A stretch of DNA of 64,000 nt from positions 2,402 to 66,401 of the forward strand of contig QPIL01000118.1 in NCBI GenBank assembly GCA_003666325.1, given 5' to 3'. Source of the stretch: Methylococcales symbiont of Iophon sp. n. MRB-2018. Lineage in GTDB: Bacteria; Pseudomonadota; Gammaproteobacteria; Methylococcales; Methylomonadaceae. Numbering within the stretch: the first letter of the stretch is position 1; each line of letters begins with the position of its first letter. Below are positions 7,817-53,649 of the stretch, piece after piece. The notes below the pieces were generated by a model. It was not told the DNA's origin. It saw nothing but the letters and a program-made list of their open reading frames with translations, and did no database searches. The position numbers and the translations under genes are program-made.

Positions 7817-9088
7817 TTGAAAATAGCATTATTAGCAGGTACCCAGTCAGGCTGTGGAAAAACCACTATTATGTTGGCTTTACTGCAATACCTTAAACAA
7901 CGAAAGCACCGTGTTCTTGCTTTTAAAGCAGGGCCAGACTTTCTTGATCCTTTATGGCATCAGGCCATTACCGAACAAAGTAGTTATAACCTAGATACAA
8001 GAATGATAGGTCTGGATATATCTCGGCAATTAATCAATAGCCAGGCTAATCAAGCAGAAATAGCATTAATTGAAGGTGTTATGGGTTTGTTTGATGGACG
8101 CACAGGTGTCGGTGAGGAAGGTTCCAGTGCCGATCTGGCAAAGGCTTTAAATTGCCCTGTTATATTAGTCATTAATGCCAAGGGGATCAGTGGTTCAATA
8201 GTGCCTTTGGTGGGTGGTTTTTGTCACTATGCTGAGAAAATGGGGGTCAAAATTGCCGGTATTATCGCTAATCATGTTGGCAGTCCTCATCATGCAAAGT
8301 TATTAACACAGTTTTTGCAGGACTATGGAATGCCACCGTTAGTGGCATGGATGGAAAAGCAAGCGCCTGTGCTTGCAGAACGACATTTAGGGCTAGTCAT
8401 GCCTGAGCAAATTAATATAGCCGATTTCCAAGCTTTTTTTCATGTGGATATTGATGTCTTATCGACTGTTTTTTCTAATTGGAGAAAACTAGATGAAGTG
8501 ACTAATAGCTTTGTTCCATTATTAGCAGGAAAACGCATAGCGATTGCTAAAGATGAGGTCTGTTGCTTTATCTATCAAGCTAATATTGACTGGCTAATTG
8601 AACAAGGTGCCGAGCTGTTTTACTTCTCAGTGATCAATGGCGAAGATGTACCTGTTAATGCAACGGCTTTGTGGTTACCTGGTGGCTACCCTGAGCTTTA
8701 TACAGAACTATTATCCAGCTCAAAAAGCTGGTCAAGCATTAGACGCTTTATTGAAAGTGATAAACCTGTATTGGCAGAGTGTGGAGGTGCTATGTTGTTA
8801 GGTCAAATGCTAATAGATATTAAGGGAAAAGCATGGGCAATGGCCAATATTTTACCGTATCGTTCGATCATGCAAAAAAAGTTAGCTGCTTTAGGTTATC
8901 GAGAAGATGCCAGTGGAATGAAAGGGCATGAATTTCATTATTCGATTCGCACATCTGAAACAGCAATAGAAACCTGTTTTGAATGTTCACGAGGAGATAA
9001 AGGCGTACGTTATAAAAATCTGCGAGCTTCTTATATTCACTGGTATTTTGCCAGTGCTCCTGAAGTTATGCTTGAATGGTTAGGTTAA
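7817..9088 (+). CDS. cbiA: cobyrinate (or related tetrapyrrole) a,c-diamide synthase
   Basis: 423 aa with a TTG start. P-loop GTQSGCGKTT, ..GPDFLDP.., and a C-terminal glutamine amidotransferase part ..AECGGAMLLG.. are present. Confidence 0.85.
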   Translation: MKIALLAGTQSGCGKTTIMLALLQYLKQRKHRVLAFKAGPDFLDPLWHQAITEQSSYNLDTRMIGLDISRQLINSQANQAEIALIEGVMGLFDGRTGVGEEGSSADLAKALNCPVILVINAKGISGSIVPLVGGFCHYAEKMGVKIAGIIANHVGSPHHAKLLTQFLQDYGMPPLVAWMEKQAPVLAERHLGLVMPEQINIADFQAFFHVDIDVLSTVFSNWRKLDEVTNSFVPLLAGKRIAIAKDEVCCFIYQANIDWLIEQGAELFYFSVINGEDVPVNATALWLPGGYPELYTELLSSSKSWSSIRRFIESDKPVLAECGGAMLLGQMLIDIKGKAWAMANILPYRSIMQKKLAALGYREDASGMKGHEFHYSIRTSETAIETCFECSRGDKGVRYKNLRASYIHWYFASAPEVMLEWLG

Positions 9089-9127
9089 GACTCAAGACTC
9101 AAGACTCAAGACTCAAGACTCAAGACC
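9088..9127 (+). repeat. heptanucleotide tandem tract T1, (AGACTCA)x5 plus partial
   Basis: Read directly. The first A is the last base of the cbiA TAA stop. Confidence 0.95.
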
Positions 9128-9314
9128 CCTTGATTTTTGGTGATTTCTTATGGGTGTTAAAGTCTGGGCGGGGTTGGTTTTGTTAGTATGTTTTATCAGC
9201 AAAACGACCAAGAAATAGCCGTTATTTCACCAAATACTGCTTGTTTTGTCTATGATTTTTGTTTAAATTATTGTTATAAATTAGATGGTTGTTGTGTTTT
9301 TAAGGGTTGGCTAA
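9128..9314 (+). repeat. partial copy (E1) of the heptamer-bearing composite element: 3' module and right TIR
   Basis: 9171..9314 aligns with 21774..21905 and 30344..30485 (ggggttggttttgttagtatgttttatcagcaaaacgaccaagaaatagccgttattt...). It ends in tttttaagggttggctaa at 9297..9314. Confidence 0.85.
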
Positions 9315-9540
9315 TTATTGACCTATAGCTGTGGAAACCTTAATTTGAGGCTGTATATAGGCTGAAATTTTCATCGTTAGCTAGTAATCTAAGTTTTGCC
9401 CATGCTTAGATCATTTATTCTTGAAAATGGTAGTAGTTCTGACACTTAATGCAGGCATAGCCAAAATTAATGTACTTGAATTCACATCATAAGTGCAACA
9501 TGCCTTACGCCTTAGTTGGTAAAAACAGTATAATGCTGGG

Positions 9541-11839: not shown

Positions 11840-12838
11840 ATGAAAAAAAGTTTTTCACGCTGGTTACAGGATGAATGGTATAGAGAAATGTATATTTCAG
11901 CCTTTTTTATGCCTATATCCATGTTGTATGCTGATTTTATCCGTTTCAGGTCATTCCTTTACAATATTGGCATACGGAAAAAACACAAAATAGCTGTGCC
12001 TGTTATAGTCGTTGGTAATATTACCCTAGGAGGTACGGGTAAAACGCCATTAATTCTTTGGTTAGCGCGGTTTTTGAGAGAAGAAGGGTATAAACCAGGC
12101 ATCATCAGTCGAGGCTATGGTGGAGAGTCTGCAATATGGCCACAGTGGGTTGATGAACAAAGTAAAGCGGATCAAGTGGGTGATGAAGCAGTGCTGATAA
12201 AACAGCAAGCTGATTGTCCGGTAGTTGTAGGACCAAAACGTGTTAAAGCAGCTCAGTTATTATTGGATAAATCTGATTGTAATATCATTTTATCGGATGA
12301 TGGCTTGCAACATTATGCTTTAAAACGAGATATTGAAATTGCAGTGATTGATGGTGAAAGGCGTTTTGGCAATGGCTATATGTTACCTTGTGGGCCTTTA
12401 AGAGAGCCTATTGAAAGATTACAAAAGGTTGATTTGGTTATCGTTAATGGTATTGCAGAAGAAGAGAATGAATTTGCTATGGCTGTCGAAGGTGATTTAG
12501 CCGTTAATTTAGTCAATAAAGAAGAAAAATTATTAGATGAATTTAAAAAGCAGAATTGTCATGCGCTTGCAGGGATAGGCAACCCTAAACGGTTTTTTAA
12601 TTTACTTGAAAAGGAAGGGCTTTTGCTAGAATGTCATGCCTTTCCTGATCACCATCAATTCATTGCTGAAGATATCAGTTTTGAGGATGATAAGCCTGTT
12701 TTGATGACAGCAAAAGATGCGGTTAAATGTATGGACTTTGCCACAGATAAACATTGGTACGTCCCTATTAAAGTACAACCAGAGCAACTGTTTATAGATA
12801 AACTATTAAAATTGATAAAAGAGAAAATACGTGGATAA
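11840..12838 (+). CDS. lpxK: tetraacyldisaccharide 4'-kinase
   Basis: P-loop [13 protein letters not shown] and ..ILSDDGLQH.. are present. The ATG at 11840 (2 nt after the exbD stop) is preferred over the TTG at 11828. Confidence 0.9.
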
Positions 12839-13019
12839 AAAGTTATTGGATATTTTGGCTTGCCCCTTATGTAAAAGTGCTTTGATTTATAAGCAAGAGG
12901 AGCAAGAGTTAATATGTAAAGTGGATCGTTTAGCGTTTCCTATCAGAGATGAAATTCCGGTGATGTTGGAAGATGAAGCGCGAGAGCTATCGGTTGATGA
13001 AGTAGATGCTTTGGCATAA
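12831..13019 (+). CDS. Trm112/YcaR family zinc-ribbon protein
   Basis: 62 aa. ..[12 protein letters not shown].. and ..[11 protein letters not shown].. are present. It holds the conserved position between lpxK and kdsB. Confidence 0.8.
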
Positions 13020-13042
13020 GTTATACCAAGTTTAAAAAATAA

Positions 13043-13076
13043 GGACTCAGGACTCAGGACTCAGGACTCAGGACTA
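13043..13076 (+). repeat. heptanucleotide tandem tract T2, (GGACTCA)x4 plus GGACTA
   Basis: Read directly. It lies 23 nt after the ycaR-like stop, in sense orientation, inside the lpxK-kdsB cluster. Confidence 0.95.
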
Positions 13077-13157: not shown

Positions 13158-13937
13158 ATGAAAAAACCTTTTAAAGTGGTCATACCTGCTCGTTATGGAT
13201 CAACTCGTTTACCAGGTAAACCACTACTAAATATCGCAGGAAAACCAATGATTGCCCATGTTTGTCAGCGTGCTATAGAAGCAAATGCTGACGAAGTGGT
13301 TGTGGCAACTGATGATCAGCGGATTTTTGATAATGTTACAAAGCTAGGTATCAAAGTGGTGATGACGGACATTAATCATCAAAGCGGTACAGAACGGATT
13401 AATGAAGTGGCAAGCCAGATGGCTTGGCAAGATGATGATATTATCGTTAATGTACAAGGTGATGAACCACTTATTCCATCTGCCTATATTAAAGAGGTTG
13501 CTCATGCTTTAGCTAGTCAAACTCAGGCTGGTATCGCTACTTTGGCATCCAGAATATTGAATGGTACCGAATTATTTAATACCAATGCAGTAAAAGTCGT
13601 ATTAGACCGAGATGATTATGCCTTGTATTTTAGCCGAGCTGCAATCCCTTGGGATCGAGATAGCTTTACTGCAAACTCCGCTGAATTATCTGATGTAATG
13701 CCCTATCTTAGGCATATAGGAATGTATGCTTATACGGTTAAATTTTTAAAGAGCTATTGTTCATGGCAGCCATCGGTACTTGAAACCGTAGAATCTTTAG
13801 AACAATTAAGAATTTTATGGCAGGGTGAATCTATTCTGGTAAAAACAGTTGGTATTGCTCCTGAAGCGGGCGTTGATACGCAAGCCGATTTAGAGCGTGT
13901 TGAGAGAGTCGTATTGAATGCAACAACTAGACTATAG
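13158..13937 (+). CDS. kdsB: 3-deoxy-manno-octulosonate cytidylyltransferase
   Basis: 259 aa. ..VIPARYGSTRLPGKPL.. and ..VNVQGDEPLI.. are present. Confidence 0.92.
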   Translation: MKKPFKVVIPARYGSTRLPGKPLLNIAGKPMIAHVCQRAIEANADEVVVATDDQRIFDNVTKLGIKVVMTDINHQSGTERINEVASQMAWQDDDIIVNVQGDEPLIPSAYIKEVAHALASQTQAGIATLASRILNGTELFNTNAVKVVLDRDDYALYFSRAAIPWDRDSFTANSAELSDVMPYLRHIGMYAYTVKFLKSYCSWQPSVLETVESLEQLRILWQGESILVKTVGIAPEAGVDTQADLERVERVVLNATTRL

Positions 13938-20905: not shown

Positions 20906-20982
20906 GAGACCTCGGCATAACGCATGAACGGATAAAAAAGGCTAGAATTTTTCCATCTTTCAGCCAAAATAACGAGCAATAG
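20906..20982 (+). mobile_element. left half of a GAGACCTC-type MITE (no right terminus)
   Basis: gagacctcggcataacgcatgaacggataaaaaaggctagaatttttccatctttcagccaaaataacgagcaatag aligns with 35418..35494. No inverted terminus follows. Confidence 0.75.
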
Positions 20983-21119: not shown

Positions 21120-21449
21120 ATGATGAATAAAATTAATATTGCTCTGGTAAGGCTTTTTCAATTTGTTGTATTTGTTTTTTTTACATTTATGGTTTTAGCC
21201 TATTTTGGAGCAATGATTCTAGTGCCTTTGGATTTGGTGGTATTGATTATTAAAGTCATGGATGTTGTTGGTCTAGGGGGTATGATAGGTGCGGCAGTAG
21301 CAATACCGATAGTTGCTTATCTAGGCATGATCGTATACAAAACCCCAAGTTTAGTTGACATGATTGTAGGAATTGGTCTGGATTTAATCAAGCACGGTAA
21401 AGAACGTGTTGAGGCTTTTAACGCAATTGCTGAAAGCATAAAAGTTTAA
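21120..21449 (+). CDS. hypothetical membrane protein (109 aa)
   Basis: Three predicted TM helices. No family recognised. Confidence 0.5.
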   Translation: MMNKINIALVRLFQFVVFVFFTFMVLAYFGAMILVPLDLVVLIIKVMDVVGLGGMIGAAVAIPIVAYLGMIVYKTPSLVDMIVGIGLDLIKHGKERVEAFNAIAESIKV

Positions 21450-21453
21450 AAAA

Positions 21454-21600
21454 GACTAAGGACTAAGGACTCAAGACTCAAGACTCAAGACTCAAGACTC
21501 AAGACTCAAGACTCAAGACTCAAGACTCAAGACTCAAGACTCAAGACTCAAGACTCAAGACTCAAGACTCAAGACTCAAGACTCAAGACTCAAGACTAAA
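21454..21600 (+). repeat. heptanucleotide tandem tract T3, 21 units (GACTAAG x2, GACTCAA x18, GACTAAA)
   Basis: 147 nt read directly. It starts 4 nt after the stop of 21120..21449. Confidence 0.97.
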
Positions 21601-21905
21601 GTAACTGAAACCTTTGTTACCATACGTCATTCCCGAAGTCTGTTATCGGGAATCTAGTTTTAAACACCTGGATTTCTGCTTAGAACATGCAGGAATGACG
21701 GAGGGAGTGACGCGGATTTTATACCCTATTCAACAAATAACTCTGAATGAAAGAGCTTTAGTTGCTCTGTGTTTGGGGTTGGTTTTGTTAGTATGTTTTA
21801 TCAGCAAAACGACCAAGAAATAGCCGTTATTTACCAAATACTGCTTTTTTTGTCTAATTTATTGTTATAAATCAGAGGGTTGTTGTGTTTTTAAGGGTTG
21901 ACTAA
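21601..21905 (+). mobile_element. body of composite element copy E2 (hairpin module, 3' module, right TIR)
   Basis: 21601..21773 matches 44291..44478 in reverse complement. 21774..21905 matches 9171..9314 and 30344..30485. It ends tttttaagggttgactaa (21888..21905). Confidence 0.85.
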
Positions 21906-22780: not shown

Positions 22781-23494
22781 TTACAAAAAAACAGCGATTA
22801 ACGCGATAAATTGCTTTGTACCCAAGACATCTCTGAGTTTTGAGCTAAACAAATATGACTTCAAAAACGTAATCAGTTTGTTTAGCGGGGTCTTTGGAAG
22901 GATGAATGGATAGCGTCTAAACATTTCTTCCCTATCAGCACAGATTGCACTCATCTGTGCTGATATTTCATCTGAGAGAATGACAGGATTTTGCACAGCG
23001 TATAAATTAATATATTTATCATTGTTCATAAAATGATCTATTGGGCGCGATATTGCTTGCAAATACGGTATTAATTTTCTAGCACCACGGTTATTTAAAC
23101 AATAGCCATGCGTTCCATAGGTGGTTTCAGCGAATATCCTTACCCTGTGTGCTTGGTTTAACTTTTTGCTAAACCAAAAACTGTGTTTTGCTGGAATATA
23201 CCCTACAGGACTACGACACCCTAAAAGCATTAGCTCCCAGTTTTTGGGAAATTATCAATTTCTGCCAAACAATTTAGCAACGCATTGTCAAATTGGACAT
23301 TGTATTCAAGAATCAATGCTGTCTCAATATCATCACCATCTTTTGATAAATCAATTTATGACTCAAAGCACAATCGATTTTACCCTGACCATCGGTCTTT
23401 GAATACTTTTTATAGCTTGTTTTTCCGAATAAACGCTATTTATTTTCGTTGCACTGAGTAATTGCCCATTTACAGCATCAATAAATTCCACGTC
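22781..23494 (-). pseudogene. glycosyltransferase family 25 (LPS biosynthesis) pseudogene: 5'-truncated with at least 2 frameshifts
   Basis: GT25-like segments lie in three frames on the minus strand: DVEFIDAVNG.. (23494 downward), ..GKIDCALSHKLIYQKMV.. then DDIETALILE.., and the 149-aa ORF ..GTHGYCLNNRGARKL... No start or first ~35 residues are present. Confidence 0.7.
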
Positions 23495-23526
23495 TAAAAT
23501 ATATTTTTAGCAAAACAGCCCTAAGC

Positions 23527-23689
23527 CTTTAGTCTTTAGTCTTTAGTCTTTAGTCTTTAGTCTTTAGTCTTTAGTCTTTAGTCTTTAGTCTTGAGTCTTG
23601 AGTCTTGAGTCTTGAGTCTTGAGTCTTGAGTCTTGAGTCTTGAGTCCTTTTTATATATTTTTTAGTTTGGGTTTTTAAGGATTGACTAA
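23527..23689 (-). mobile_element. truncated inverted copy E4: left TIR plus heptamer tract T4 ((CTTTAGT)x9 (CTTGAGT)x8 on the + strand)
   Basis: The tract is 23527..23645. tttttaaggattgactaa at 23672..23689 matches the element TIR. On the minus strand it reads TIR - (ACTCAAG)n - (ACTAAAG)n, then abuts the truncated GT25 gene. Confidence 0.85.
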
Positions 23690-23750
23690 TTAGCGTACAA
23701 TTCAACACATAAGCCATTCTTTCACATCATTAAATAACGGAGTCACTTTA

Positions 23751-25379
23751 ATGTCATCACTCATAAAATCAGCCATTTGGCATGATCTTCAAAATCATTT
23801 TCATGACATCTCTAATTTACACATGAGAGACATGTTTGCTGATGATATTCATCGTTTTGATAAATTCTCTTTATGCTTCAACGATATTCTTTTCGATTAT
23901 TCTAAAAATAGAATAACTGATAAAACGCTACCGTTATTACTGGAACTTGCCAAACAAAGACAATTAGATAAAAAAATCAAAGCCATGTTTGCAGGTGAAA
24001 AAATCAACCAAAGTGAAGATAGAGCTGTTTTGCATATCGCATTGAGGAATCGCAGTAACCGCCCTATCTTAGTGGATGGTCGAGATATTAATGCCGATGT
24101 AAGGCGGGTTTTAAAAAAAATGCGGCGTTTTTGTGATGCTGTTCATTCGGGTAGCTGGCGTGGGTTTACCGGTAAAGTGATGACTGATGTGGTTAATATT
24201 GGTATAGGGGGTTCTGATTCAGGGCCAAGAATGGTTGTTAGGGCTTTACAGCCTTACTCGATAAATAAAATTCAAACACACTTTGTCTCTAATGTTGCAC
24301 AAGCCGACTTACTTAGCACGCTAAACAAATTGAACCCAGAGACCACTCTGTTTTTAATCGCATCAAAAACATTTACTACCCAAGAAACCATAACCAATGC
24401 CATTTCAGCTCGTAGCTGGCTGGTCAATGCATTATCAGACCAAAATGCAGTCGATAAACACTTCGTGGCTATTTCAACGAATACGGAAAAAGTCGTTGAA
24501 TTTGGTATTGCTCCAGAAAATACATTTGAATTTTGGGATTGGGTTGGTGGTCGTTTTTCTCTTTGGTCAGCCATCGGCTTATCCATCCCTTTAGCCATTG
24601 GCATGGATAACTTTGAAAAACTATTAGACGGTGCTCATGATGTTGATGAACACTTTAGGCTAACACCTTTCAAACAGAATATCCCCGTTATTATGGCGCT
24701 ACTAGGTGTTTGGTATAACAATTTTTTTAAAACCGAATGCCAGGCTATTTTACCGTATGGTCATTATCTACGGTATTTTCCTGCCTTTATGCAACAAGGG
24801 GATATGGAAAGTAATGGTAAAAGCGTTGATGTTGAAGGAAATGCAGTAGATTATCAGACTGGCCCTATTATATGGGGTCAAACAGGCACTAATGGACAAC
24901 ATGCCTTTTACCAACTTATCCATCAGGGTACAAAATTGATCCCCTGCGACTTTTTAGTACCAGCAACAAGTTATCATGACCTGCCAGACCATCACAATAT
25001 GTTGATTTCTAACTTTCTGGCTCAACCCCAAGCCTTGATGCAGGGAAAAACGGCAGAACAGGTCATCAGCGAACTTGACCTGTCCGAACACGATAGTATT
25101 CGGGTTAATGCCAAAGTTTTCCCTGGAAACATACCCACTAATTCATTTTTATTTAAACAATTAACAGCAAAAACACTGGGTTCATTAATTGCTCTATATG
25201 AACATAAAGTGTTTGTCCAAGGGGCAATATGGAATATCAACTCATTTGACCAGATGGGTGTTGAATTAGGAAAAGTTTTGGCTGGCGTTATTTTTCCAGA
25301 ACTGCAGAATAAAGATAAAGCCAGTAGTCATGATAGCTCAACCAATGGTTTAATTAATCATTTAAAAAAAATTCGCTGA
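23751..25379 (+). CDS. pgi: glucose-6-phosphate isomerase
   Basis: 542 aa. ..[12 protein letters not shown].., ..[12 protein letters not shown].. and ..[15 protein letters not shown].. are present. Confidence 0.95.
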
Positions 25380-25427
25380 CGTGGTGGAAAACTAAAATTT
25401 AATGGCTCCTCTATTCAACATAGACCT

Positions 25428-28400
25428 ATGAAAATACTCAATATTTATTTTAAGAATATTAATTCACTGGAAGGCGAAAATCGCATTCATTTTGATCAGC
25501 TACCCTTGTCTGAGTCGGGTGTTTTTGCCATTACAGGCCCTAATGGTTCAGGTAAATCGAGTATTTTAGATGTCATCACTTTAGCCTTATATGGAGAAAC
25601 ATTTCGTTTTGATCGCCCAGCTGATCATGTAATGACTAAAGCCACGACGGAAAGTTTTGCAGAGGTTGAGTTTGAATTAGCGGGTAATAGCTATCGTTCA
25701 AGCTGGTATGTTAAGAGAGATAGAAACAAAGCTCAGGGGGATTTATTGGCACCAGAAATGACATTACATCATTTGAATGACAGTGCGCAACTTATAGAGC
25801 AAAGTACGCAAAAAGTAAGAAGTCGTGTGGCTGAAATAACAGGGATGGATTTCCATAAGTTTAGTAAATCCATGATTTTGGCTCAAGGCGATTTTTCTGC
25901 TTATCTAAATGCACTTGATAGTGAGCGGATGGATATTCTGGAGAAAATCAGTGGTTCTGATATTTATCATACCCTTAAGAATCAGGCAGAAGAAAAAAAC
26001 AAAGTCGCTCAAACGCAATTACAGATATTACAACAAGATCTTAATGCCATCCCCATTGTAGATGCTGTGAGTAGAGAAGCCAACGAACTGGATTTAGCTG
26101 ATTTTCAACAACAGTATCTTGAGCTAAAACAAGAATATCAGGAAATACATCAGCAGTTAGTTTCTGTACAGAAAGTGAGTAATTTGCAAAGTCAGTCTAA
26201 AACTTTGACGCATCAGCAAAAACTATTAGATACACAGTTAGAAGAAAACCAGAGAAAACTGGATAAAATTGAATCCATGCAAGTGGTCAAGCGATTTGAA
26301 GATGATTTAAAAATACTTGATAATAAGCTTTCTGATACAGAACAAAGTCGGAAAACACTGGATTCTTATCGTAGTGAACTGGATTTATTGCAAAAACAAC
26401 TGAATGAGCACGAGTTTGATGTTAATACAGCCAGCACCCACAACACATCCTTATCAGAACAAAAAGCTAGTATAGAAAAAATTAAGTTGAAATTGAATGC
26501 CTTGAACTTAGCATTAGTACAAGAAAATGCTTTAATTCAATCAATGAACCAGCAAGCTGTTGAATATAAAACCACCCTAGAAGAGGGCGAGGTCTGGTTG
26601 CAAGAACATGCAGTGGATCAACATTTACTCAATGAATTTCCTGAATTTACTCGTTTATCACTTCTTAAACAGACACTGGCTGAAGCGACAGAAAAGCAGC
26701 AAGTATTTTTAAATTGGTCAAAAAACACCTCAAAAGGATTAAAACAATCTAAAGAACATAGTGAATCCTTGACTAAAAAAAGTGTAGATTTAGAGGCTCA
26801 GATTAAAGCAGATGAACAACTGTTAGAAACAATGAGTGAGGGTTATTCATTGCAACAGTTATATGAAATAAAACTGCAACAACAAGAAAGACTTGAACAA
26901 TTTCAAGAGTTAAGCGATCTTGCTAATGTCAATTCCAAAATGGGTAACAAAGGATTTTTAGAAAGCTTATTTCAATCTAAAGGTGCTGATAGAGAAGCAT
27001 ACGAATTAAAGCAGGAAGCTGAGCAATTGCAACTGGAAATCGGTAAAGAGCAAAGAATCATCATCATCTTGGAAGCCGCTGTCTTTAATGAAGCATTGTT
27101 ATCAAAAATGGAGGGAGATAGACAGCATTTAAAAGAGGATAAAGCGTGTTCTTTATGTGGCGCTCTGGATCACCCCTATCTAAAGTATCCGCCCGCTGTT
27201 TCAAATTCAAAACAAATATTGCTTGAACAACGCAAAAAACTTAAATATCTGAATACAGAGGCAAGCAGTTTGGTTAAACAAATTGCAATTTCTAAAAACC
27301 AAGTAAAAATCGATAAGGAAAAAGCGGGTAAATTAGAAGTCATTTGTTCTCAGTGGAATAGTCTAGCAAACAAGTTAAATGTTGCTGGTATGGGTTTAGA
27401 TATTGAAAAAGTTTCAGCTATTAAAGAATTAGTTAAGGAAAAAAAATCTGAATTATCTATTTTGAATACGCTGATTAAGAAATATTCCAAGCAGCAAGCA
27501 GTGATGGTTGAAGCAAAGGAAACGATTGAGCTTAACAAAAATAACTTAGCTCGTTTGAGTAAAGAGATTAAAGTTTTAACTTCTGAAATAAATACTCGCC
27601 CGGATGAGTCTGCTGAGTTAGAGCAAAAGGTTTCCAGCATTCAGCAAGATGTAAAAACTTTAGAAACAAAAATTACTGAACAACTTAATGTATTAGGTGA
27701 AAAAAAACCGAGTAAAAAAATTAAAGAAGATGAATTGATTCGACACTTAAATGCACGCAAACAAGCCTATAATTCAAGAAAAGTACATGCAAAAACCTTA
27801 TTAGAACAACTGCAAAGTTTAGAAACAAAAACAGCGGAATCGCTGTTTAAGATTGAACAACTAACAAAAGATATTGAAAAAAATACAGCATTGGATCAAC
27901 AACAAGAGTTAGCTGGTTTGCATTTGTCGCTACTAGAAAAACAAAGATTAATTGCCGATAAAGAAGTTATTTATGGGCAACAAGAAAAAGATTCAGCGGC
28001 CTTAAAACAAAATCTGCTAGAAAGCAGTCAAGATCTGGCTCAAGGTGATTTGAATATGTTGAGAGAGGGTGTTGAATTAGTTAAAGACAAAGGGTATGTG
28101 TTACAGACACGCTTAGAATTGACCCAACGAGTTAATAAAATAGGGAAAGGCATAGAGCAATCTCAAACAGAACTGGATAAAGAAAAAGCGATGCTTTTAA
28201 CGGATAAAAAAGAAGATGGGTTGTTACCTTTAGATAAATCCATGAAAGAAAAATTACATATTACAAAACAGGAAATAGATACATTACAGAACAAATTAAA
28301 ACAACAAAATATCATGCAAGAAAAGTATGATGCACTTTTGCAAAAAGTGACCCAGCAAAAAGAAAAAGTCAAAGCCAGTGAGAAAGAAATTAAATTTATC

Positions 28401-28877
28401 TCGGAAGATAATGGCATACACTTTCGTCATAAAGTGCTGGAAGGGATGGCAGATAAATTATTATCCGAATCCAATCAGGTGTTAGAGAAAATTAGTGGAC
28501 GCTATTTTTTGCGAAAAGCTGAGAGTGAACATGGTCTGGCACTGGAAATAGAAGATAGCAAACAAAAAAATGTCAGGCGTTTACCTAAAACATTATCTGG
28601 TGGGGAGAGTTTTATCGTTAGCTTGGCGTTAGCAATGGGCTTAGCAGAAATGGCTAGTAATGGCCATGCTTTGGATTCTTTATTTCTGGATGAGGGTTTT
28701 GGTAATTTAGATGCCGAAGCACTTTATGTGGCTATGACAACGCTGGAAAGTTTAAAAATACACGGAAAAACAGTGGGCGTTATTTCCCACGTTGAAAGTG
28801 TACGTAAGCGGATTAAAACACAGATAAAAATGATTAAAAAACCAAATGGCATGAGTGCTTTAAAGGTGATTTCTTGA
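25428..28877 (+). CDS. sbcC: SbcC-type SMC-like ATPase (exonuclease subunit C)
   Basis: 1149 aa. The N-terminus MKILNIYFKNINSLEGE..FAITGPNGSGKSSILDVITLALYGET parallels E. coli SbcC. It has a long coiled coil, a zinc hook CSLCG, and a C-terminal signature LSGGESF plus Walker B LFLDEGFG. Confidence 0.88.
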   Translation: MKILNIYFKNINSLEGENRIHFDQLPLSESGVFAITGPNGSGKSSILDVITLALYGETFRFDRPADHVMTKATTESFAEVEFELAGNSYRSSWYVKRDRNKAQGDLLAPEMTLHHLNDSAQLIEQSTQKVRSRVAEITGMDFHKFSKSMILAQGDFSAYLNALDSERMDILEKISGSDIYHTLKNQAEEKNKVAQTQLQILQQDLNAIPIVDAVSREANELDLADFQQQYLELKQEYQEIHQQLVSVQKVSNLQSQSKTLTHQQKLLDTQLEENQRKLDKIESMQVVKRFEDDLKILDNKLSDTEQSRKTLDSYRSELDLLQKQLNEHEFDVNTASTHNTSLSEQKASIEKIKLKLNALNLALVQENALIQSMNQQAVEYKTTLEEGEVWLQEHAVDQHLLNEFPEFTRLSLLKQTLAEATEKQQVFLNWSKNTSKGLKQSKEHSESLTKKSVDLEAQIKADEQLLETMSEGYSLQQLYEIKLQQQERLEQFQELSDLANVNSKMGNKGFLESLFQSKGADREAYELKQEAEQLQLEIGKEQRIIIILEAAVFNEALLSKMEGDRQHLKEDKACSLCGALDHPYLKYPPAVSNSKQILLEQRKKLKYLNTEASSLVKQIAISKNQVKIDKEKAGKLEVICSQWNSLANKLNVAGMGLDIEKVSAIKELVKEKKSELSILNTLIKKYSKQQAVMVEAKETIELNKNNLARLSKEIKVLTSEINTRPDESAELEQKVSSIQQDVKTLETKITEQLNVLGEKKPSKKIKEDELIRHLNARKQAYNSRKVHAKTLLEQLQSLETKTAESLFKIEQLTKDIEKNTALDQQQELAGLHLSLLEKQRLIADKEVIYGQQEKDSAALKQNLLESSQDLAQGDLNMLREGVELVKDKGYVLQTRLELTQRVNKIGKGIEQSQTELDKEKAMLLTDKKEDGLLPLDKSMKEKLHITKQEIDTLQNKLKQQNIMQEKYDALLQKVTQQKEKVKASEKEIKFISEDNGIHFRHKVLEGMADKLLSESNQVLEKISGRYFLRKAESEHGLALEIEDSKQKNVRRLPKTLSGGESFIVSLALAMGLAEMASNGHALDSLFLDEGFGNLDAEALYVAMTTLESLKIHGKTVGVISHVESVRKRIKTQIKMIKKPNGMSALKVIS

Positions 28878-29144
28878 TTTTTATATTCGATATAAAACTA
28901 TAAAACTATAAAAATTTCTAATTAGCTATCAAGTGTTTTTTTATGCTGAGGTCTCCTTAATACAATGGTTAAAAACAACACTGGCGAATTTAACCCATAA
29001 GTGCAACACTTCCATTCAAAAAATAGTACTTGAAAAGTTTTACCAGCGTGGTACCTTTAGCGATTCAATAATAATAATAATAAATAACCCTATCAATACC
29101 TTGTTTTTCATAGGGTTAAAAAATTTCATATAGAGAGGAAAAAA

Positions 29145-29888: not shown

Positions 29889-30060
29889 TAATTACTTTGT
29901 AATTCAGATGATTATAGTTATTTTATTGTTTCCAATTAAGCAATTTGTAGCCAACAGAAAAATGGCACAATATATCAAAATGCAAGAATATATTTAACAA
30001 CTAAATTCCCCCTCAAGCTATCAATAATCCCCATAAAAATAGGATCAACACATTGATTAT

Positions 30061-30086
30061 CCGTTCATGAGTTATGCTGAGGTCTC
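30061..30086 (-). mobile_element. solo right terminus of the GAGACCTC-type MITE
   Basis: ccgttcatgagttatgctgaggtctc is the reverse complement of the first 26 nt of the 35418 element. Confidence 0.75.
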
Positions 30087-30089
30087 TTA

Positions 30090-30488
30090 TAGTTAGTCAA
30101 GCCTTAAAAAGACTCAGGACTAAAGACTAAAGACTCCTTGATTTTTTATTAGAAGTAGGGTGCGTTTGCCCGCCAAGGATGGTGGAAATGCAGTAAGATT
30201 GTCTGGAACAATCTTTGCCCACGCACCAGTTAAGACAGTATCTGGATTCCTGCTTAGAACATGCAGGACGGGGAGTGAAGCGGCTCTTATACCATGCTCA
30301 ACAAATAACTCTGAATGAAAGAGGTTTAGTTGCTCTGTGTTTGGGGTTGATTTTATTAGTATGTTTTATCAGCAAAACGACCAAGAAATAGCCGTTATTT
30401 TACTAAACGCTGCTTTTTTTCTATGGTTTTTGTTTAAATTATTGTTATAAATCAGATGATTGTTGTATTTTTAAGGGTTGACTAAGTA
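30090..30488 (+). mobile_element. complete MITE-like composite element E3 (TIRs plus internal heptamer tract T5)
   Basis: The left end tagTTAGTCAAGCCTTAAAAA (30090..30110) and right end TTTTTAAGGGTTGACTAAgta (30468..30488) are inverted repeats, 17/18 over the core. The internal tract is GACTCAG GACTAAA GACTAAA (30111..30131). No ORF of transposase size is present. Confidence 0.8.
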
Positions 30489-30635
30489 AACTCCCTAAGT
30501 TGCAACGCCTGACATAGATAAAAAAAAGCACCAGACGGGTAAGATATTTGTTGCAAATTGCCTTAGCATAGTGAATTACCCTTGATTGAGTTGTTCAGAT
30601 CTAGATTAAGATTTTACTCTATGCTATAGTCATAT

Positions 30636-30654
30636 CTAAATGAGAATTATTACC
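30636..30654. promoter_or_regulatory. possible weak Fur box upstream of feoA
   Basis: ctaaatgagaattattacc matches 13/19 positions of GATAATGATAATCATTATC. Confidence 0.35.
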
Positions 30655-30713
30655 ACTTACATTATTTTTAATTTTTACTTTATTTTTCAACTTGAAAAGG
30701 GTTGTATTTAACC

Positions 30714-30947
30714 ATGTCAGTAAGTTTAAAAACATTGATTGTCGGTGACAAAGCTAAAGTCATCGGCTTTAATAAAATGGCTAAGGCGTATCGCAAACGT
30801 CTGTTAGCTATGGGTTTGACACCAGGTACTGAATTTGATGTTATTCGCCATGCCCCTTTAGGTGACCCGATTGAAATTAAGATACGTGGGTTTTCCCTTA
30901 CTTTGCGAAAAAATGAAACAGAAGTGTTATTGATTGAGAAAATATGA
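30714..30947 (+). CDS. feoA: ferrous iron transport protein A
   Basis: SH3-like FeoA, ..LKTLIVGDKAKVIGF.. and ..LLAMGLTPGTEFDVI... The ATG at 30714 is preferred over the TTG at 30702. Confidence 0.85.
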   Translation: MSVSLKTLIVGDKAKVIGFNKMAKAYRKRLLAMGLTPGTEFDVIRHAPLGDPIEIKIRGFSLTLRKNETEVLLIEKI

Positions 30948-33277
30948 CTGATTTTAGTATCGCCGTTGTAGGTAATCCCAATTGCGGTAAAACCACATTA
31001 TTTAATGCTCTAACAGGTTCTAGACAACAGGTTGGGAACTGGTCAGGAGTGACCGTTGAAAAGAAAACGGGAGAATATAGTTATAGCAAAAAGCAGATAG
31101 CAGTTGTTGATTTACCAGGTACCTATTCATTAGAATCTACAGATGATGATGTTTCTCTGGATGAAAAATTAGCTAGAGATTATGTCGCATCAAATCAGTC
31201 TGACTTGATTATTAATATTATTGACGCATCTAACTTAGAAAGAAATTTATATTTGACATCACAACTTATTGAAATGCGTGTACCAATGATATTGGTATTC
31301 AATATGATGGATGAGGTTAAGCGGCGTGGAATTAAAATTGACCTAGATTGTATTGCAAAACAATTAGCATGTCCTGTTGTTCCAATTATAGCTTCAACGG
31401 GCATGGGGTTGGAGCAATTGCAGATTGAAATTAACAAAGCGGTTGACAATATTTCGGTTCCAGAAATACAAATTCAGTACTGTAATGCCATCGAAAAAGC
31501 AATTTCCAGTTTATCTTTGCAGTTAATGGATCAGGCTGAGAACAGTCGATGTGATTTAAGATGGTTAGCCTTACGTTTATTGGAAGAGGATACCTTAGCT
31601 AAAGGTATTGCTGGCGAACAAGTGACATCTGATGTAAAAGCATTACAGTTATCAATTGAGCAAGAAACAGAAGATGAAATTGATATTTTAGCAGCCGATG
31701 CACGTTATGGTTTCGTTAATGCGTTAACACGGAAAAGTGTTTGCCGTTTAAATGAAGTATCGCGACATATATCAGATAAAATTGACAGAATTGTATTAAA
31801 TAAATTCCTTGGCATCCCTATCTTTTTATTAGTCATGTATGCCATGTTTATGCTTACCATTAACGTTGGTAGTGCTTTTATAGATTTCTTTGATCTTGCC
31901 GTAGGTGCAATTACGGTAGATGGTCTTAGTGTTGTATTAACGCATCTAAGTTTTCCTGAATGGTTGGTAGTATTAATTGCTAATGGTTTAGGTGGTGGTG
32001 TTCAGGTTGTGGCTACCTTTATACCTATTGTCGGTTTTTTATTTATCTTTTTATCAGCGTTAGAAGATTCGGGCTATATGTCCAGAGCGGCTTTTGTGAT
32101 GGATCGGTTTATGGTGATGATAGGTTTGCCGGGCAAAGCCTTTGTACCGATGATTGTAGGGTTTGGTTGTAATGTCCCCGCCATTATGGCAACACGTACA
32201 TTAGATAAACAAAGTGATCGTATATTGACTAATTTAATGAACCCTTTTATGTCATGTGGCGCTAGATTACCGGTATATGCTTTATTTGCTGCTGCATTTT
32301 TTCCAGTAGGTGGGCAGAACCTAGTTTTTGGACTGTATTTACTAGGTATTATTGTTGCCGTTATTACTGGATTGATTATGAGACATACTCTTTTTAAAAC
32401 GGATGTAACAGCGTTTATTATGGAGTTACCCACTTATCATATGCCCACGATTAAAGGTGTTTCTATTAAAACTTGGGATCGGCTTAAAGCCTTTATTTTT
32501 AGCGCAGGAAAAGTAATTGTGCCAATGGTTCTGGTTTTAAATTTTTTAAACTCATGGGGTGTAGATGGTAGTTTTGGTCAGGAAAATAGTCAAACATCGG
32601 TACTCAGCGAAATTGGTAGATCTTTAACCCCTGCATTTAAACCGATGGGTATTGAGAAAGACAATTGGCCGGCAACGGTCGGTATTTTTACTGGTGTTTT
32701 AGCTAAGGAGGCCGTGGTTGGTACTTTAGATGCGTTGTATAGTCAAATGGCTACAGTTGAAGGTGATAAAGAGGAACAGGTGTTTAGCTTATCTGCTGCA
32801 CTATTAGAAGCTTTTGCCACGATTCCTGAGAATATTACTGCCGTTGCTGGTAACCTTCTTGATCCTTTAGGATTGAATATAGGCGATGTATCGTCCCTAG
32901 ATATGGCTGCTGCAGATCAGGATGTTGATACCGGTACTTTTTCGGCAATGAAAGCCAGTTTTGATGGTCAGGCAGGTGCTTTTGCCTATCTATTGTTTAT
33001 CTTACTTTATGCACCGTGTGTTGCCGCAACGACTGCAATATATCGGGAAACAAACGCTAGTTGGGCATTGTTTGTGCTTTTTTGGACCACGGGATTGGCC
33101 TATATGTCAGCTACTATTTTTTATCAAGTAGCAACTTTCTCACAACACCCTGCTTATTCTACACAATGGATAGTAGGGCTTATTATTGCATTTATCGTCG
33201 TCTTGTTTGCTTTGTGGTGTTACGGAAAATCTTTTCAAATTGCAGAAATAGAACAGAAAAGTAATGATTTTATCTGA
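30944..33277 (+). CDS. feoB: ferrous iron transporter FeoB
   Basis: 777 aa. The G domain has VVGNPNCGKTTLFNALTG and DLPGTYSL, followed by the polytopic gate domains. Confidence 0.96.
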   Translation: MTDFSIAVVGNPNCGKTTLFNALTGSRQQVGNWSGVTVEKKTGEYSYSKKQIAVVDLPGTYSLESTDDDVSLDEKLARDYVASNQSDLIINIIDASNLERNLYLTSQLIEMRVPMILVFNMMDEVKRRGIKIDLDCIAKQLACPVVPIIASTGMGLEQLQIEINKAVDNISVPEIQIQYCNAIEKAISSLSLQLMDQAENSRCDLRWLALRLLEEDTLAKGIAGEQVTSDVKALQLSIEQETEDEIDILAADARYGFVNALTRKSVCRLNEVSRHISDKIDRIVLNKFLGIPIFLLVMYAMFMLTINVGSAFIDFFDLAVGAITVDGLSVVLTHLSFPEWLVVLIANGLGGGVQVVATFIPIVGFLFIFLSALEDSGYMSRAAFVMDRFMVMIGLPGKAFVPMIVGFGCNVPAIMATRTLDKQSDRILTNLMNPFMSCGARLPVYALFAAAFFPVGGQNLVFGLYLLGIIVAVITGLIMRHTLFKTDVTAFIMELPTYHMPTIKGVSIKTWDRLKAFIFSAGKVIVPMVLVLNFLNSWGVDGSFGQENSQTSVLSEIGRSLTPAFKPMGIEKDNWPATVGIFTGVLAKEAVVGTLDALYSQMATVEGDKEEQVFSLSAALLEAFATIPENITAVAGNLLDPLGLNIGDVSSLDMAAADQDVDTGTFSAMKASFDGQAGAFAYLLFILLYAPCVAATTAIYRETNASWALFVLFWTTGLAYMSATIFYQVATFSQHPAYSTQWIVGLIIAFIVVLFALWCYGKSFQIAEIEQKSNDFI

Positions 33278-33491
33278 GCTAAGAAATTATCTTAAAGAAA
33301 AAAAAAGAGTGACCTTAAATGAATTAGTGATTCATTTTGATGTAGATGCTGATGCGCTCAGAGGCATGTTAGCCCAATGGATGAAGAAAGGTAAAGTGCG
33401 TCAATTGCCCATAGGTTCTGGTTGTGGTTCAACATGTATTAAATGCGATCCTACTCTGACTGAGTTTTATGAGTGGGTAGTCAGGGACTAA
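33264..33491 (+). CDS. feoC: FeoC-like winged-helix protein
   Basis: 75 aa. ..LSELRNYLKEKKRVTLNELV.. is followed by a Cys cluster GCGSTCIKCDP. The stop TAA lies inside a GGACTAA repeat unit. Confidence 0.8.
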   Translation: MILSELRNYLKEKKRVTLNELVIHFDVDADALRGMLAQWMKKGKVRQLPIGSGCGSTCIKCDPTLTEFYEWVVRD

Positions 33492-33505
33492 GAACTAAGG
33501 ACTAA
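33485..33505 (+). repeat. heptamer tract T6a (GGACTAA GAACTAA GGACTAA)
   Basis: Read directly. It contains the feoC stop codon. Confidence 0.9.
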
Positions 33506-33514
33506 GTCCTGATT

Positions 33515-33633
33515 CTTTAGTCTTTAGTCTTTAGTCTTTAGTCTTTAGTCTTGAGTCTTGAGTCTTGAGTCTTGAGTCTTGAGTCTTGAGTCTTGAGTCT
33601 TGAGTCTTGAGTCTTGAGTCTTGAATCTTGAGT
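33515..33633 (-). repeat. heptamer tract T6b, 17 units ((CTTTAGT)x5 (CTTGAGT)x12 on the + strand, one unit CTTGAAT)
   Basis: Read directly. On the minus strand it reads (ACTCAAG)n then (ACTAAAG)n, in sense with proS. Confidence 0.97.
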
Positions 33634-35340
33634 CCCCATTTTTTCTGTTAAAAATTCAATAATTCCATTAAGCGCAATGTCCTCGCTGTCTTTATCTGTT
33701 CTGGCTTTATATTCAATAGTACCAGCATCCAAGGATCTTTCACCCAAGACTAGGCGATGCGGAATGCCAATGAGTTCCATATCTGAGAACATAAAACCTG
33801 CACGTACTTTACGATCATCGAGTAATACTTCAAAGCCTGCGTTAAGCAGTTGTTGGTAGAGGCTATCAACAGCTACTTTTAAGCGCTCCGATTTATGCAT
33901 ATTCATCGGGCATAAAGCAATTTGAAATGGGGCTAAATTAGCCGACCAGATGATCCCTTTATCATCATGGCTTTGTTCGATAGCAGCAGCTACAATTCTG
34001 GAAATGCCTATACCGTAGCAACCCATAATCATGGTTTGGTTTTTGCCTGCTTCATTGATAACACAGGCTTTCATTGCTTTGCTGTATTTATCACCTAATT
34101 GAAAAATATGACCTACTTCAATACCACGGGCAAGGGTGATTAAGCCTTTTCCATCGGGACTTGGGTCACCTTCAACTACCATACGAATATCTTCAATTTG
34201 TTGAGGTAAGGGCAGGTCTTTTCCCCAATTTACGCCTGTGTAGTGCTTTTCATTTTGATTGGCACCACAAACAAAATCAGACAGTAGGCTAGCGCTACGG
34301 TCTACAATTACAGTGATATTCAACCCAATAGGGCCAATTGAACCAGGTTTACATTGGCAACTGGCAAGAATTTGTTCATCACTGGCAAACTCTAAAGGTG
34401 AAAGTACCGCTTCTAATTTTTCTGCTTTAAGTTCGTTAAGTTCATGGTCTCCACGTAATAATAATGCAATTAATTGATCATTCTCACCCTTAACAATTAA
34501 GGTTTTTAAGCATTGTTGAGCCTTTATGTTAAAAAATTGACTGACCTCTTCAATGCTATGTTGTTTAGCGGTATCAACTAGCGTTAGTTCTGCTATGGCA
34601 GAAGAGCGTGAAGCAGAGGGCATAATGGCCTCTGTTTTTTGTATATTTGCGGCATAGTCACTTTCAGTAGAAAAGGCTATGGCATCTTCGCCCGAATCTG
34701 CCAGTACATGAAACTCATGCGATATTGCACCACCTATAGAACCGGAATCTGCGATAACAGCACAAAACTTTAATCCTAATTGATTAAATATATTACTGTA
34801 TGCCTGATACATGACATCATAGGTTGCTTGTAAAGACTTTTGATCTAAATGAAATGAGTAAGCATCTTTCATGATAAATTCACGAGAGCGCATAATACCA
34901 AAGCGAGGACGAATCTCATCACGTACTTTGGTTTGAATTTGATAATAGTTGATCGGTAATTGTTTGTAGCTTTTTAACTCGTTTCTAGCCAGATCAGTAA
35001 TGATTTCTTCATGCGTTGGACCTAGGCAAAAATCACGATCATGACGGTCTTTTAAACGTGCTAATTCTGGGCCGTATTGCTCCCAGCGTCCTGTTTCTTG
35101 CCAGAGTTCAGCAGGCTGCAAAACAGGCATTAATACCTCTAAAGCACCTGCTTTTTCCATTTCCGCTCGAGTGATTTTTTCTACTTTACGCAACACTCTT
35201 AATCCTAAAGGCAACCAGGTATACAAACCCGCTGCTAGTTTACGAATTAAACCTGCTCGAATCATTAGTTTATGGCTGGAAATTTCAGCATCCGCAGGAA
35301 TTTCTTTGACAGTGCTAAGAGGAAATTGAGAAGTACGCAT
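33538..35340 (-). CDS. proS: prolyl-tRNA synthetase with a repeat-encoded C-terminal tail
   Basis: 600 aa. Bacterial-type ProRS with an insertion (editing) domain. ..[17 protein letters not shown].. is class II motif 2 and ..GCYGIGISR.. is motif 3. The last 31 residues GTQDSRLK(TQDSRLK)x3TKD are translated from tract T6b. Confidence 0.95.
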
Positions 35341-35417
35341 GGTGTATAAATGTATTCGATAAAAAATCAGCTATTCTACCGATTTAACAGCAAGTCGGGT
35401 AAGTATCTTAGCAAAAA

Positions 35418-35576
35418 GAGACCTCAGCATAACTCATGAACGGATAAAAAAGGCTAGAAGTTTTTCATCTTTCAGCCAAAATAACGTGCAATAGCTTACT
35501 ATTACACTTGTATTTTGACTAAAACCTGAAAAATTATATCGTTTTTTTCTCATCGCCAGAGTTATGCTGAGGTCTC
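35418..35576. mobile_element. 159-bp MITE with perfect 18-bp terminal inverted repeats
   Basis: gagacctcagcataactc (35418..35435) is the exact reverse complement of gagttatgctgaggtctc (35559..35576). There is no coding capacity. Related half and solo copies are at 20906, 30061, 28941, 2531, 14161 and 61377. Confidence 0.85.
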
Positions 35577-35706
35577 AAAAATCAATAACCGTAGTTTGTA
35601 CTACAGAGCCATCAACACCCTTGACTCCAAACTTGCTATACCCCTACAACATTAACTTGCTTGCAAGATGGACACTGTTTTGCCACTTTTCATAATTATC
35701 TCCTCA

Positions 35707-36000: not shown

Positions 36001-36009
36001 AAGATAGCC

Positions 36010-36288: not shown

Positions 36289-36518
36289 TTATTAAATGCA
36301 ACCAATAACGTAACAGGTGTCAATTGAGTTTGGCACATACGCCAAAATCAGATGCCGTTGCCAAGTGTTCGATGAACTCTGACAAAGCACTGAACTTTGA
36401 TATAAACTGACCTTTGAATCGGCTGGAACTTCAATCGACCCCTTTGATTCTTTTATCTCGATATTTTTTAAGGTTTTGATTCATTGCAAAAACCACTTAA
36501 TACGGTAATAATTCAATT

Positions 36519-41493: not shown

Positions 41494-41496
41494 ATC

Positions 41497-53648: not shown

Positions 53649-53649
53649 T

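Follow-up and report, generated by a model that had tools for sequence, protein, structure and literature searches.

A 64,000-nt stretch of the genome of the methanotrophic Methylococcales symbiont of the sponge Iophon (37% G+C; called the window throughout) contains a family of tandem heptanucleotide tracts, most of which lie at the 3' ends of housekeeping genes. A preliminary description, made from the letters alone, had listed eight such tracts at seven loci, grouped them as one family and read their placement as functional design. The family itself was borne out. Tandem Repeats Finder (TRF) called eight period-7 arrays with 2.9-21.4 copies, 80-100% matches and perfect runs of 18-130 nt, against no arrays of periods 4-6 or 8-11 in the window, and the pattern GACTMARGACTMARGACT, allowing at most one mismatch, was matched 71 times, always inside the eight tracts, and not once in 100 shuffles. 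All eight arrays are intergenic or overlap only the terminal codons of genes. Their units (GACTCAA, GACTAAA, GACTCAG and GACTAAG) follow the formula GACT(C/A)A(A/G) and are referred to below as CA or AA units; the tracts are listed with their TRF calls and copy numbers in brackets.

T1, 9087-9127, plus strand: (AAGACTC)x5.7, beginning on the final bases of the TAA stop of a cbiA-like gene (9087-9126, 5.7 copies)
T2, 13042-13076, plus strand: (AGGACTC)x4, then AGGACTA; 22 nt 3' of the trm112/ycaR stop (13042-13075, 4.9 copies)
T3, the focal tract, 21452-21601, plus strand: two AA-type units, about 18 CA units and one AA unit (21452-21601, 21.4 copies)
T4, 23527-23646, minus strand: (GACTCAA)x8.5, then (GACTAAA)x9; between divergent genes, 104 nt upstream of pgi (23527-23646, 17.1 copies)
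T5, 30108-30135, plus strand: GACTCAG GACTAAA GACTAAA GACT; about 220 nt downstream of tRNA-Cys and directly inside the left inverted end of a complete element described below (30108-30135, 4.0 copies)
T6a, 33485-33506, plus strand: GGACTAA GAACTAA GGACTAA G, with the feoC stop codon inside (33487-33506, 2.9 copies)
T6b, 33507-33634, minus strand: (GACTCAA)x12, then (GACTAAA)x5, with the proS stop within the AA block (33505-33634, 18.6 copies)
T7, 44479-44555, minus strand: ACTCAA, then (GACTAAA)x10, with the acrB stop inside (44479-44555, 11.0 copies)

A common polarity, with CA units 5' and AA units 3', runs through T4, T5, T6b and T7 and recurs in the last unit of T2 and of T3, which argues for common descent of the arrays over their independent birth.

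The identities given earlier to the neighboring genes agree with Pfam, which places a CbiA/CobQ-type amidotransferase at 7817-9088, Trm112/YcaR at 12831-13019, FeoC at 33264-33491, ProS at 33538-35340 (minus strand) and an AcrB-type RND pump at 44544-47675 (minus strand). The open reading frame (ORF) at 21120-21449, past whose stop T3 starts 2 nt away, has no Pfam match but is nevertheless conserved in the sister genome considered below. For six of the eight tracts the reported placement at the stop codon of a co-oriented gene was confirmed: T1 begins on the cbiA TAA, T2 and T3 follow their genes, and reading of the junctions places the stop codons of feoC, proS and the acrB pump gene inside T6a, T6b and T7. 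T4, for which a gene-proximal CA block had been described, lies between divergent genes; the CA-then-AA order described for T4, T6b and T7 holds in all three, but for T4, which adjoins no gene 3' end, calling the CA units gene-proximal is meaningless.

The arithmetic of stop codons on which the idea of design had rested is correct. In the sense direction (AGACTCA)n contains no stop in any frame and (AGACTAA)n places TAA in every frame, while the antisense strands carry TGA or TAG in all frames, TGA having been claimed for the CA variant. The tolerance of copy-number slippage deduced from these properties survives in part: ProS remains at 586-614 residues after the simulated gain or loss of one to seven units, but tolerance is irrelevant to T1, T2 and T3 because their stop codon precedes the tract. 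It matters for ProS only, where the outcome is a 31-residue junk tail. The tracts also differ from contingency loci, in which a phase-variable simple sequence repeat (SSR) occupies the 5' coding region or the promoter, since they lie at 3' ends and unit changes alter only the length of the ProS tail; T4, upstream of pgi, is one possible exception.

Tract sites in the sister symbiont

The Hymedesmia symbiont, from which about 68 kb was retrieved and aligned to the window, is a sister of the Iophon symbiont: the two share 93.6% average nucleotide identity, have genomes of 2.0-2.2 Mb and are probably transmitted vertically (PMC6474228). In our alignment the genes flanking the tracts are about 94-96% identical. 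Tracts are absent from all of the orthologous sister sites that could be examined, those of T2, T3, T4, T6 and T7 (0/5); these five sites hold ordinary unique spacers, native stop codons and an intact glycosyltransferase gene.

The manner in which the sites differ is most explicit at T6. In the sister, proS ends ...GAAAAAATCGGGTGA and is followed by a unique 230-nt spacer and then by the convergent feoC; in the window the spacer and both stop codons have been replaced by 153 nt of heptamers, FeoC ends ..EWVVRD* where the sister protein ends ..QWGDE*, and ProS has acquired a tail of 31 residues, (TQDSRLK)n ending TKD*, encoded by 97 nt of T6b. The best other ProS match, that of the Hymedesmia symbiont, has 569 residues and is 96% identical. 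At T7 the last seven codons of acrB differ from those of the sister, and the downstream genes differ too. The same two convergent genes are separated by 36 nt in the sister and by about 497 nt in the window at T3, whereas at T4 the tract has taken the place of about 520 nt of sister sequence, with which the 5' ~25 codons of a GT25 glycosyltransferase gene were lost, and at T2 the tract replaces a 60-nt sister spacer holding a different small repeat. Synteny with the sister breaks at T1, T5 and T7, and the block 30500-37768 runs in opposite directions in the two genomes. Three genes of the window carry the most visible changes.

22781-23515, minus strand: remnant of the GT25 glycosyltransferase gene, its 5' end cut off by T4; the sister gene is intact (279 aa)
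33538-35340, minus strand: proS, encoding 600 aa against 567-578 aa in all 119 other listed homologues
44544-47675, minus strand: acrB-type RND pump gene with a rewritten C-terminus, ..KKVIRGNTQD* against ..KKIVLPTDF* in the sister

Because the orthologous sister sites lack a tract, the alignment identifies the tracts as recent gains of the Iophon-symbiont lineage and not as conserved gene-end modules, and by the same comparison they have damaged or rewritten gene ends. The two symbionts, about 94% identical, one with arrays and one without, form an unusually clean before-and-after pair. The pair shows that arrays can be acquired recently along with a small inverted-repeat element, that they can erase entire intergenic spacers, and that they can overwrite the stop codons and C-termini of essential genes (ProS, AcrB and FeoC) without destroying them. 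Proteins such as the 600-residue ProS bear repeat-encoded tails that annotation passes on silently.

Several further differences between the two genomes were recorded. The sister has a heptamer array of its own, (TTTTCAG)4.5(TTTTTAG)5(TTTTCAA), at L126 6290-6362, lying between divergent genes and ending 12 nt upstream of a start codon. A dispersed sister repeat of about 45 nt, GAGGGCAATCTRAGYAGTTACGGAGTANGCTGAGTAGTTAC, occurs at L126 ~13490-13545 and at L027 5990-6025 and 6421-6453, and one copy fills the spacer that holds T2 in the window. Upstream of the sister proS, putA (1035 aa) and an aminotransferase gene (411 aa) surround a HigB/HigA pair (L120 3276-8864); putA and the aminotransferase gene are absent from window positions 35340-36520. 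The epimerase gene that follows in the window (36519-37070) appears truncated, with 183 aa against 323 aa.

Inverted ends and modules at the tracts

Four of the tract loci carry modules (M1 to M4) of one composite element with 15-nt inverted ends, GTCAASCCTTAAAAA ... TTTTTAAGGSTTGAC, flanked by TA and with the array just inside the left end. Its copies and parts in the window are the following.

9170-9317, plus strand: M4 and right inverted end, after T1
21602-21708, plus strand: M1+M2 after T3, structured, with the hairpin TTCCCGA..TCGGGAA
21703-21908, plus strand: end of M2, M3, M4 and right inverted end, after T3
23672-23689, plus strand: copy of the left-end motif near T4, TTTTTAAGGATTGAC followed by TA, joined at the TA to native pgi upstream sequence
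30096-30482, plus strand: complete 387-nt element, consisting of left end GTCAAGCCTTAAAAA, T5 array, spacer, M2, M3, M4 and right end TTTTTAAGGGTTGAC
44372-44478, minus strand: M1+M2 after T7, 107 nt, 91% identical to the T3 copy

The ends of the complete element at T5 form terminal inverted repeats, GTCAAGCCTTAAAAA pairing with TTTTTAAGGGTTGAC with one mismatch, and a TA stands on either side (30094-30095 and 30483-30484); every other end copy is flanked by a TA too. M2-M3-M4 is common to T3 and T5, M4 (~150 nt) to T1, T3 and T5, and the flank CCTTGATTTTT to T1 and T5. The remaining loci keep different parts: T4 retains the left end, a 26-nt spacer and the array, T1 and T3 the array, modules and right end, T7 the array and M1+M2, and T2 and T6 the arrays only. 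Every copy of M1 (2/2), M2 (3/3) and M4 (3/3) follows a tract in the same orientation, with no other copies in the window, and the end motif TTTTTAAGGNTTGAC, which terminates M4 before the TA, occurs there five times against 0.79 expected, each time adjoining a tract. Because every module and inverted-end copy adjoins a tract, the comparison points to carriage of the tracts on a mobile element. The RNA of M1+M2 is predicted to be structured (z = -3.4 for the T7 copy).

Junctions with native DNA provide further detail. At T3 and T4 the TA beside the element end is native in the uninterrupted sister sequence (GTA-TA-ATTAAG and AA-TA-ATTAGCG, respectively), as expected had the element inserted at a TA; in both cases this is the right-hand junction. 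T3 has no left end, and the array there is joined to the TTTAA stop of the gene; both partners end in TTAA, and the junction fits a deletion at microhomology. In one Hymedesmia-symbiont assembly an end copy is present at L121 60-77, while none occurs there in the other assembly, L120, a sign that near-identical strains may differ in their copies of the element family. With five end copies, a sister T3 site that is empty and the difference between L121 and L120, the element is both multicopy and variably present, as are miniature inverted-repeat transposable elements (MITEs).

Bacterial MITEs of the IS630/Tc1-mariner type, such as the Correia elements of Neisseria, use TA as their target site. 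The element at T5 resembles them in being short, non-coding, bounded by TA-flanked inverted repeats, multicopy, intergenic and present or absent between close relatives. We know of no description of such MITEs in which a long hypervariable heptamer array lies just inside one end.

No further copies of M4 were found in the JGI metagenomes, and five matches of the 17-nt end motif to viral contigs were set aside as being in line with chance. The start of M1 after T3 (21603-21609) reads TAACTGA, a single copy of the heptamer of Beggiatoaceae, where the T7 copy reads TAACTGG; coincidence is probable. Both symbiont genomes also contain another MITE-like family, unrelated to the first and about 165 nt long, whose inverted ends are GAGACCTCAGCATAAC...GTTATGCTGAGGTCTC; copies are at window 20906-20982, 35415-35581 and ~30040-30090 (reverse complement) and at L120 1947-2091, L121 210-354 and L027 5437-5585; it also lies at synteny breakpoints, at window ~20989 and beside T5.

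Origin and possible role of the tracts

Among long simple repeats, heptanucleotide arrays are the over-represented class in many bacteria. The sense orientation of the six stop-flush tracts of the window (6/6, one-sided p ~0.016) is real but small, and suggestive. For a wider view, one genome per species was scanned with 3.5 units of GACTMAR, which gave at least 118 loci, with several metagenome-assembled genomes (MAGs) holding multiple loci; the counts that follow refer to the matches listed, which span Acidobacteriota, Planctomycetota, Bacteroidota, Cyanobacteria, Gemmatimonadota, Chloroflexota, Methylococcales and others, and rest on crude, ORF-based gene calls with a filter on third-position G+C content (GC3) applied to high-GC loci. 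Tracts stood no more than 30 nt from a gene 3' end in 49 cases and from a 5' end in 27, and at the 3' ends the antisense orientation prevailed over the sense orientation by 32 to 17, in the same direction in low-GC loci and in GC3-filtered high-GC loci. Four metagenome contigs with the same CA-to-AA junction have their arrays, mixed with other heptamers, immediately before an ATG (L128-L130) or behind a stop codon (L131). Proximity to gene ends is therefore recurrent across genomes and sense orientation is not, and a general rule of sense orientation at 3' ends was rejected. Control of orientation by the direction of replication was rejected as well, the cumulative GC skew rising monotonically through the window while tract orientation alternates.

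The reading that we favor, and consider moderately probable, is that the tracts are lineage-specific heptamer arrays sited just inside one end of a TA-flanked, MITE-like element, expanded by slippage, trimmed by deletion and fused to gene ends. Copies of the element would have inserted into intergenic spacers once the two symbionts had diverged, and the arrays would then have been lengthened and shortened by replication slippage while keeping their CA-5'/AA-3' polarity. Short deletions and recombination at or near the arrays, such as the one suggested by the TTAA microhomology at the left junction of T3, may have removed adjoining parts of the element together with native spacer, and in a reduced, deletion-prone genome this would leave arrays flush with gene 3' ends or a few codons inside them. 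Such fusions would persist only where translation still stops, which the AA variant secures in the sense direction and both variants secure in the antisense direction; because fusions would survive only on that condition, the stop-codon properties would be a survival filter, not a design. The arrays, their absence from the sister, the rewritten gene ends and the exclusive association with modules and inverted ends are observed directly; that the element spread by transposition, that slippage made the arrays differ in length, and the sequence of these events are the parts of this account that we infer.

Several observations weigh against it. The TA "duplication" is inseparable from a conserved terminal TA, being only 2 nt long; T2 and T6 lack any module or inverted end, and their origin from the element is deduced from unit type and polarity only; a single complete copy of the element was seen; and neither a transposase domain nor an autonomous partner was found in the ORFs of the window that were scanned. 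A fragment of a DDE_3 (IS630-type) transposase is present in the sister, with no matching end motif near it. Random insertion of a MITE does not explain why all six flush tracts, or seven of eight overall, are co-oriented with the upstream gene. The basis is, moreover, 64 kb of the Iophon symbiont and about 68 kb of its sister.

That sense bias counts in favor of the main rival explanation, in which the tracts are selected 3'-end modules whose sense RNA forms an unstructured, C-over-G spacer that loads Rho or a single-strand RNA-binding protein of the S1, Csp or CsrA type, the upstream transcript being terminated or stabilized and the AA block securing a stop at any copy number. In accord with it, the RNA of T3 folds worse than 200 of 200 shuffles (z = +2.6), the CA blocks contain 28% C and 14% G with one YC per 7 nt and reach the 94th percentile of all 78-nt windows in C minus G, the head-to-head junction of T6a and T6b, where feoC and proS converge, folds into a hairpin of -31 kcal/mol, and in Xanthomonas heptamer repeats coincide with the start or the end of a transcript more often than control repeats do (PMC4692102). 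Intrinsic termination is another matter: none of T1-T5 or T7 was called as an intrinsic terminator, the T6a/T6b junction offers only a weak 5-bp palindrome, and the combination of a G+C-rich hairpin with a U run is missing. A search of Rfam at the gathering threshold returned two tRNAs only in the window, and an E-value search around T3 gave spurious microRNA matches on the repeat. We consider selected modules rather unlikely, since the same genes function with ordinary spacers at five of five sister sites, the AA blocks and T2 have no C-over-G skew and the AA blocks no YC dinucleotides, so that no such property is family-wide, T4 and T5 lie away from the ends of protein-coding genes, the antisense excess elsewhere goes the opposite way, the arrays of L128-L130 stand directly before start codons, and the tracts have damaged genes (the truncated glycosyltransferase, the ProS tail). 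The functional placement proposed in the preliminary description is likewise not supported, in view of the sister sites, the antisense excess elsewhere, the irrelevance of slippage tolerance to T1-T3, and the modules and inverted ends, which point to a mobile element. A Rho or RNA-binding role is possible for some blocks, the CA blocks being similar in composition to a Rho loading (rut) site, a C-rich, G-poor and unstructured RNA segment of some 70-80 nt, but is not common to the family, and the sister manages without it. A combination of the two ideas, a mobile "gene-end cassette" in which a TA-inserting MITE brings a sense array that supplies all-frame stops and an unstructured C-rich pad for Rho or an RNA-binding protein, seems to us quite improbable; if true, it could replace native stops and terminators in a shrinking symbiont genome, and it would account for the all-sense flush tracts and give a testable molecular role to heptamer arrays, for whose over-representation in bacteria no explanation is generally accepted.

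The carriage of the arrays on an element has itself to be set against simpler origins. Were the tracts purely local microsatellites, each born by in-place slippage from a chance GACTNAN seed and neither mobilized nor copied from one locus to another, the repeats beside them would be unrelated neighbors; the 84 other heptamer arrays of many units among the matches listed, of which six have a GACT core, the different array of the sister (TTTTCAG/TTTTTAG) and a modest excess of single GACTAAA words on the plus strand of the window (11 against 7 expected) would all suit such an origin. It is made doubtful, and to our minds a poor prospect, by orthologous sister spacers that lack a seed and were replaced rather than expanded, by the recurrence of the same two variants in the same 5'-to-3' order at different loci, by the shared flanks (CCTTGATTTTT after T1 and T5, M1 after T3 and T7) and by the association of all module and inverted-end copies with tracts. 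A nickase-driven origin, suggested by the GAGTC that occurs once per CA unit and by the in-vitro synthesis of repeats with nickase and polymerase, was set aside, given that the site does not occur in AA units and that an enzyme of this kind was not seen. There is only a very slight chance that short-read assembly created the tracts or badly distorted them. SPAdes, with k-mers of up to 127, was used to reassemble the MAG bins (PMC6474228), and because the perfect run of T3, 130 nt, equals k+3, as a collapsed cycle in the assembly graph would give, its 21 units are probably a collapsed lower bound; an independent Logan contig also ends 13 nt from the edge of T4. Yet the perfect runs in seven of the eight tracts are shorter than k (18-78 nt) and have unique flanks and internal variant structure, the break at T4 agrees with a genuine repeat, similar arrays occur in the independent assemblies of the wider scan, and the sister genome, assembled likewise, has no such tracts. 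As a practical caution, array copy numbers close to the k-mer size of the assembler are unreliable. The Logan contig in question (L119, ERR15286148_18681) is 100% identical over 5368 nt to window 23659-29026, beginning 13 nt after T4. It demonstrates that assemblies at k=31 are interrupted by the arrays, and that a further public run contains the same strain.

Known relatives and other features of the window

The tracts belong to the class of heptanucleotide long SSRs, in this genome probably as part of a MITE-like element. What they add to this familiar kind of repeat is a new unit, a new host, an association with an element and direct evidence that stop codons have been replaced. Short tandemly repeated repetitive (STRR) sequences of heterocystous cyanobacteria, with the units CCCCAGT, TTGGTCA and CAACAGT, are likewise families of tandem heptanucleotides dispersed in intergenic DNA. 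The tracts may be called STRR-like, consisting as they do of three or more head-to-tail 7-nt units in many dispersed, mainly noncoding arrays with period 7 over-represented, and the likeness noted in the preliminary description is apt. Among the matches listed in the wider scan, the other perfect tandem arrays show the same dominance (period 7, n=89; periods 6, 8 and 9, n=2, 8 and 3). They are not STRRs in the strict sense (STRR1-3), as their units differ and their host is a Methylococcales symbiont. Two STRR units do begin with GACT when read in reverse complement (GACTGGG and GACTGTT), as the window units do, but the shared core is probably a coincidence because only six of 84 co-occurring arrays contain it, against 5.4% by chance; a universal GACT/AGTC core uniting the window family with STRR1, STRR3 and other heptamers was rejected on this count. 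No mention of the unit GACT(C/A)A(A/G) turned up in the literature searched.

Heptamers are the most abundant or over-represented class of long SSRs according to Mrazek and co-workers (2007), as summarized in later papers (PMC4679880, PMC4692102). The window tracts resemble the SSRs of those summaries in being 7-nt tandems, with many arrays per genome, mostly intergenic, dominated by period 7 and scattered over the phylogeny, and differ from what is summarized there in their reduced sponge-symbiont host and their linkage to an inverted-end element. Heptamer repeats frequently lie 0-50 bp from a stop codon or overlap it (PMC4692102), and for the GGGAATC repeats of Xanthomonas and GGGGA(C/T)T repeats of Nostoc the mean distance to the upstream ORF is 28 nt (Rehm et al. 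2015, PMC4692102), a placement identical to that of T1-T3, T6 and T7. Those repeats, however, are G-rich, capable of forming G-quadruplexes and usually of about four units, whereas the window units are A-rich and unstructured and reach at least 21 copies. The locations of GGGAATC repeats are more conserved than control regions between two Xanthomonas species (PMC4692102), in contrast to tracts that are absent from the sister, and Rehm et al. report no link to mobile elements (PMC4692102), whereas the window tracts are tied to MITE-like modules.

Repeats of large sulfur bacteria had also been mentioned in connection with the tracts. Heptamer arrays do exist there: TAACTGA direct repeats occur in marine Beggiatoaceae and in some Cyanobacteria and Bacteroidetes (MacGregor 2015, PMC4679880). 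Like the window tracts, they are heptamer tandems of patchy, cross-phylum distribution, sometimes mixed with other heptamers, with stop codons in the forward direction and frequent assembly breaks (PMC4679880). The unit is different, however, and in the Orange Guaymas genome the sets, of 2-6 copies, lie mostly a few nt upstream of start codons, where translational regulation has been proposed (PMC4679880), whereas no tract of the window lies directly upstream of a start codon. A further comparison concerns T4, whose 17 units 104 nt upstream of pgi are comparable to the tracts of hmw1A and hmw2A in Haemophilus influenzae, where a 7-nt unit is repeated 13-38 times about 100 bp ahead of the gene (PMC2651432); the hmw tracts lie in promoters of surface adhesin genes, whose expression they tune (PMC2651432), a setting unlike that of most window tracts.

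Apart from the tracts, the window contains a defense island at 38538-43362, made up of a SoFic-like Fic protein (38538-39686; PADLOC 1.3e-50) and a Gabija pair, GajA at 39751-41493 (1.6e-220) and GajB at 41497-43362 (5e-233). Within the Fic-domain ORF, at 39431-39493, lies the sole non-heptamer tandem array of the window, a 12-nt repeat AAACGCCCCTGT in 5.2 copies, which is in frame and encodes a 4-residue repeat. Between a TonB-dependent receptor gene and a CbiX-like gene, 53388-54377 holds direct repeats of two lengths, 177 nt (92% identical) and 89 nt (85% identical). Similar segments of about 35 nt (89-91% identical), at 57612-57696 and 61342-61438, precede mnmA (57832) and purB (61523), and may represent a shared promoter, leader or small repeat.

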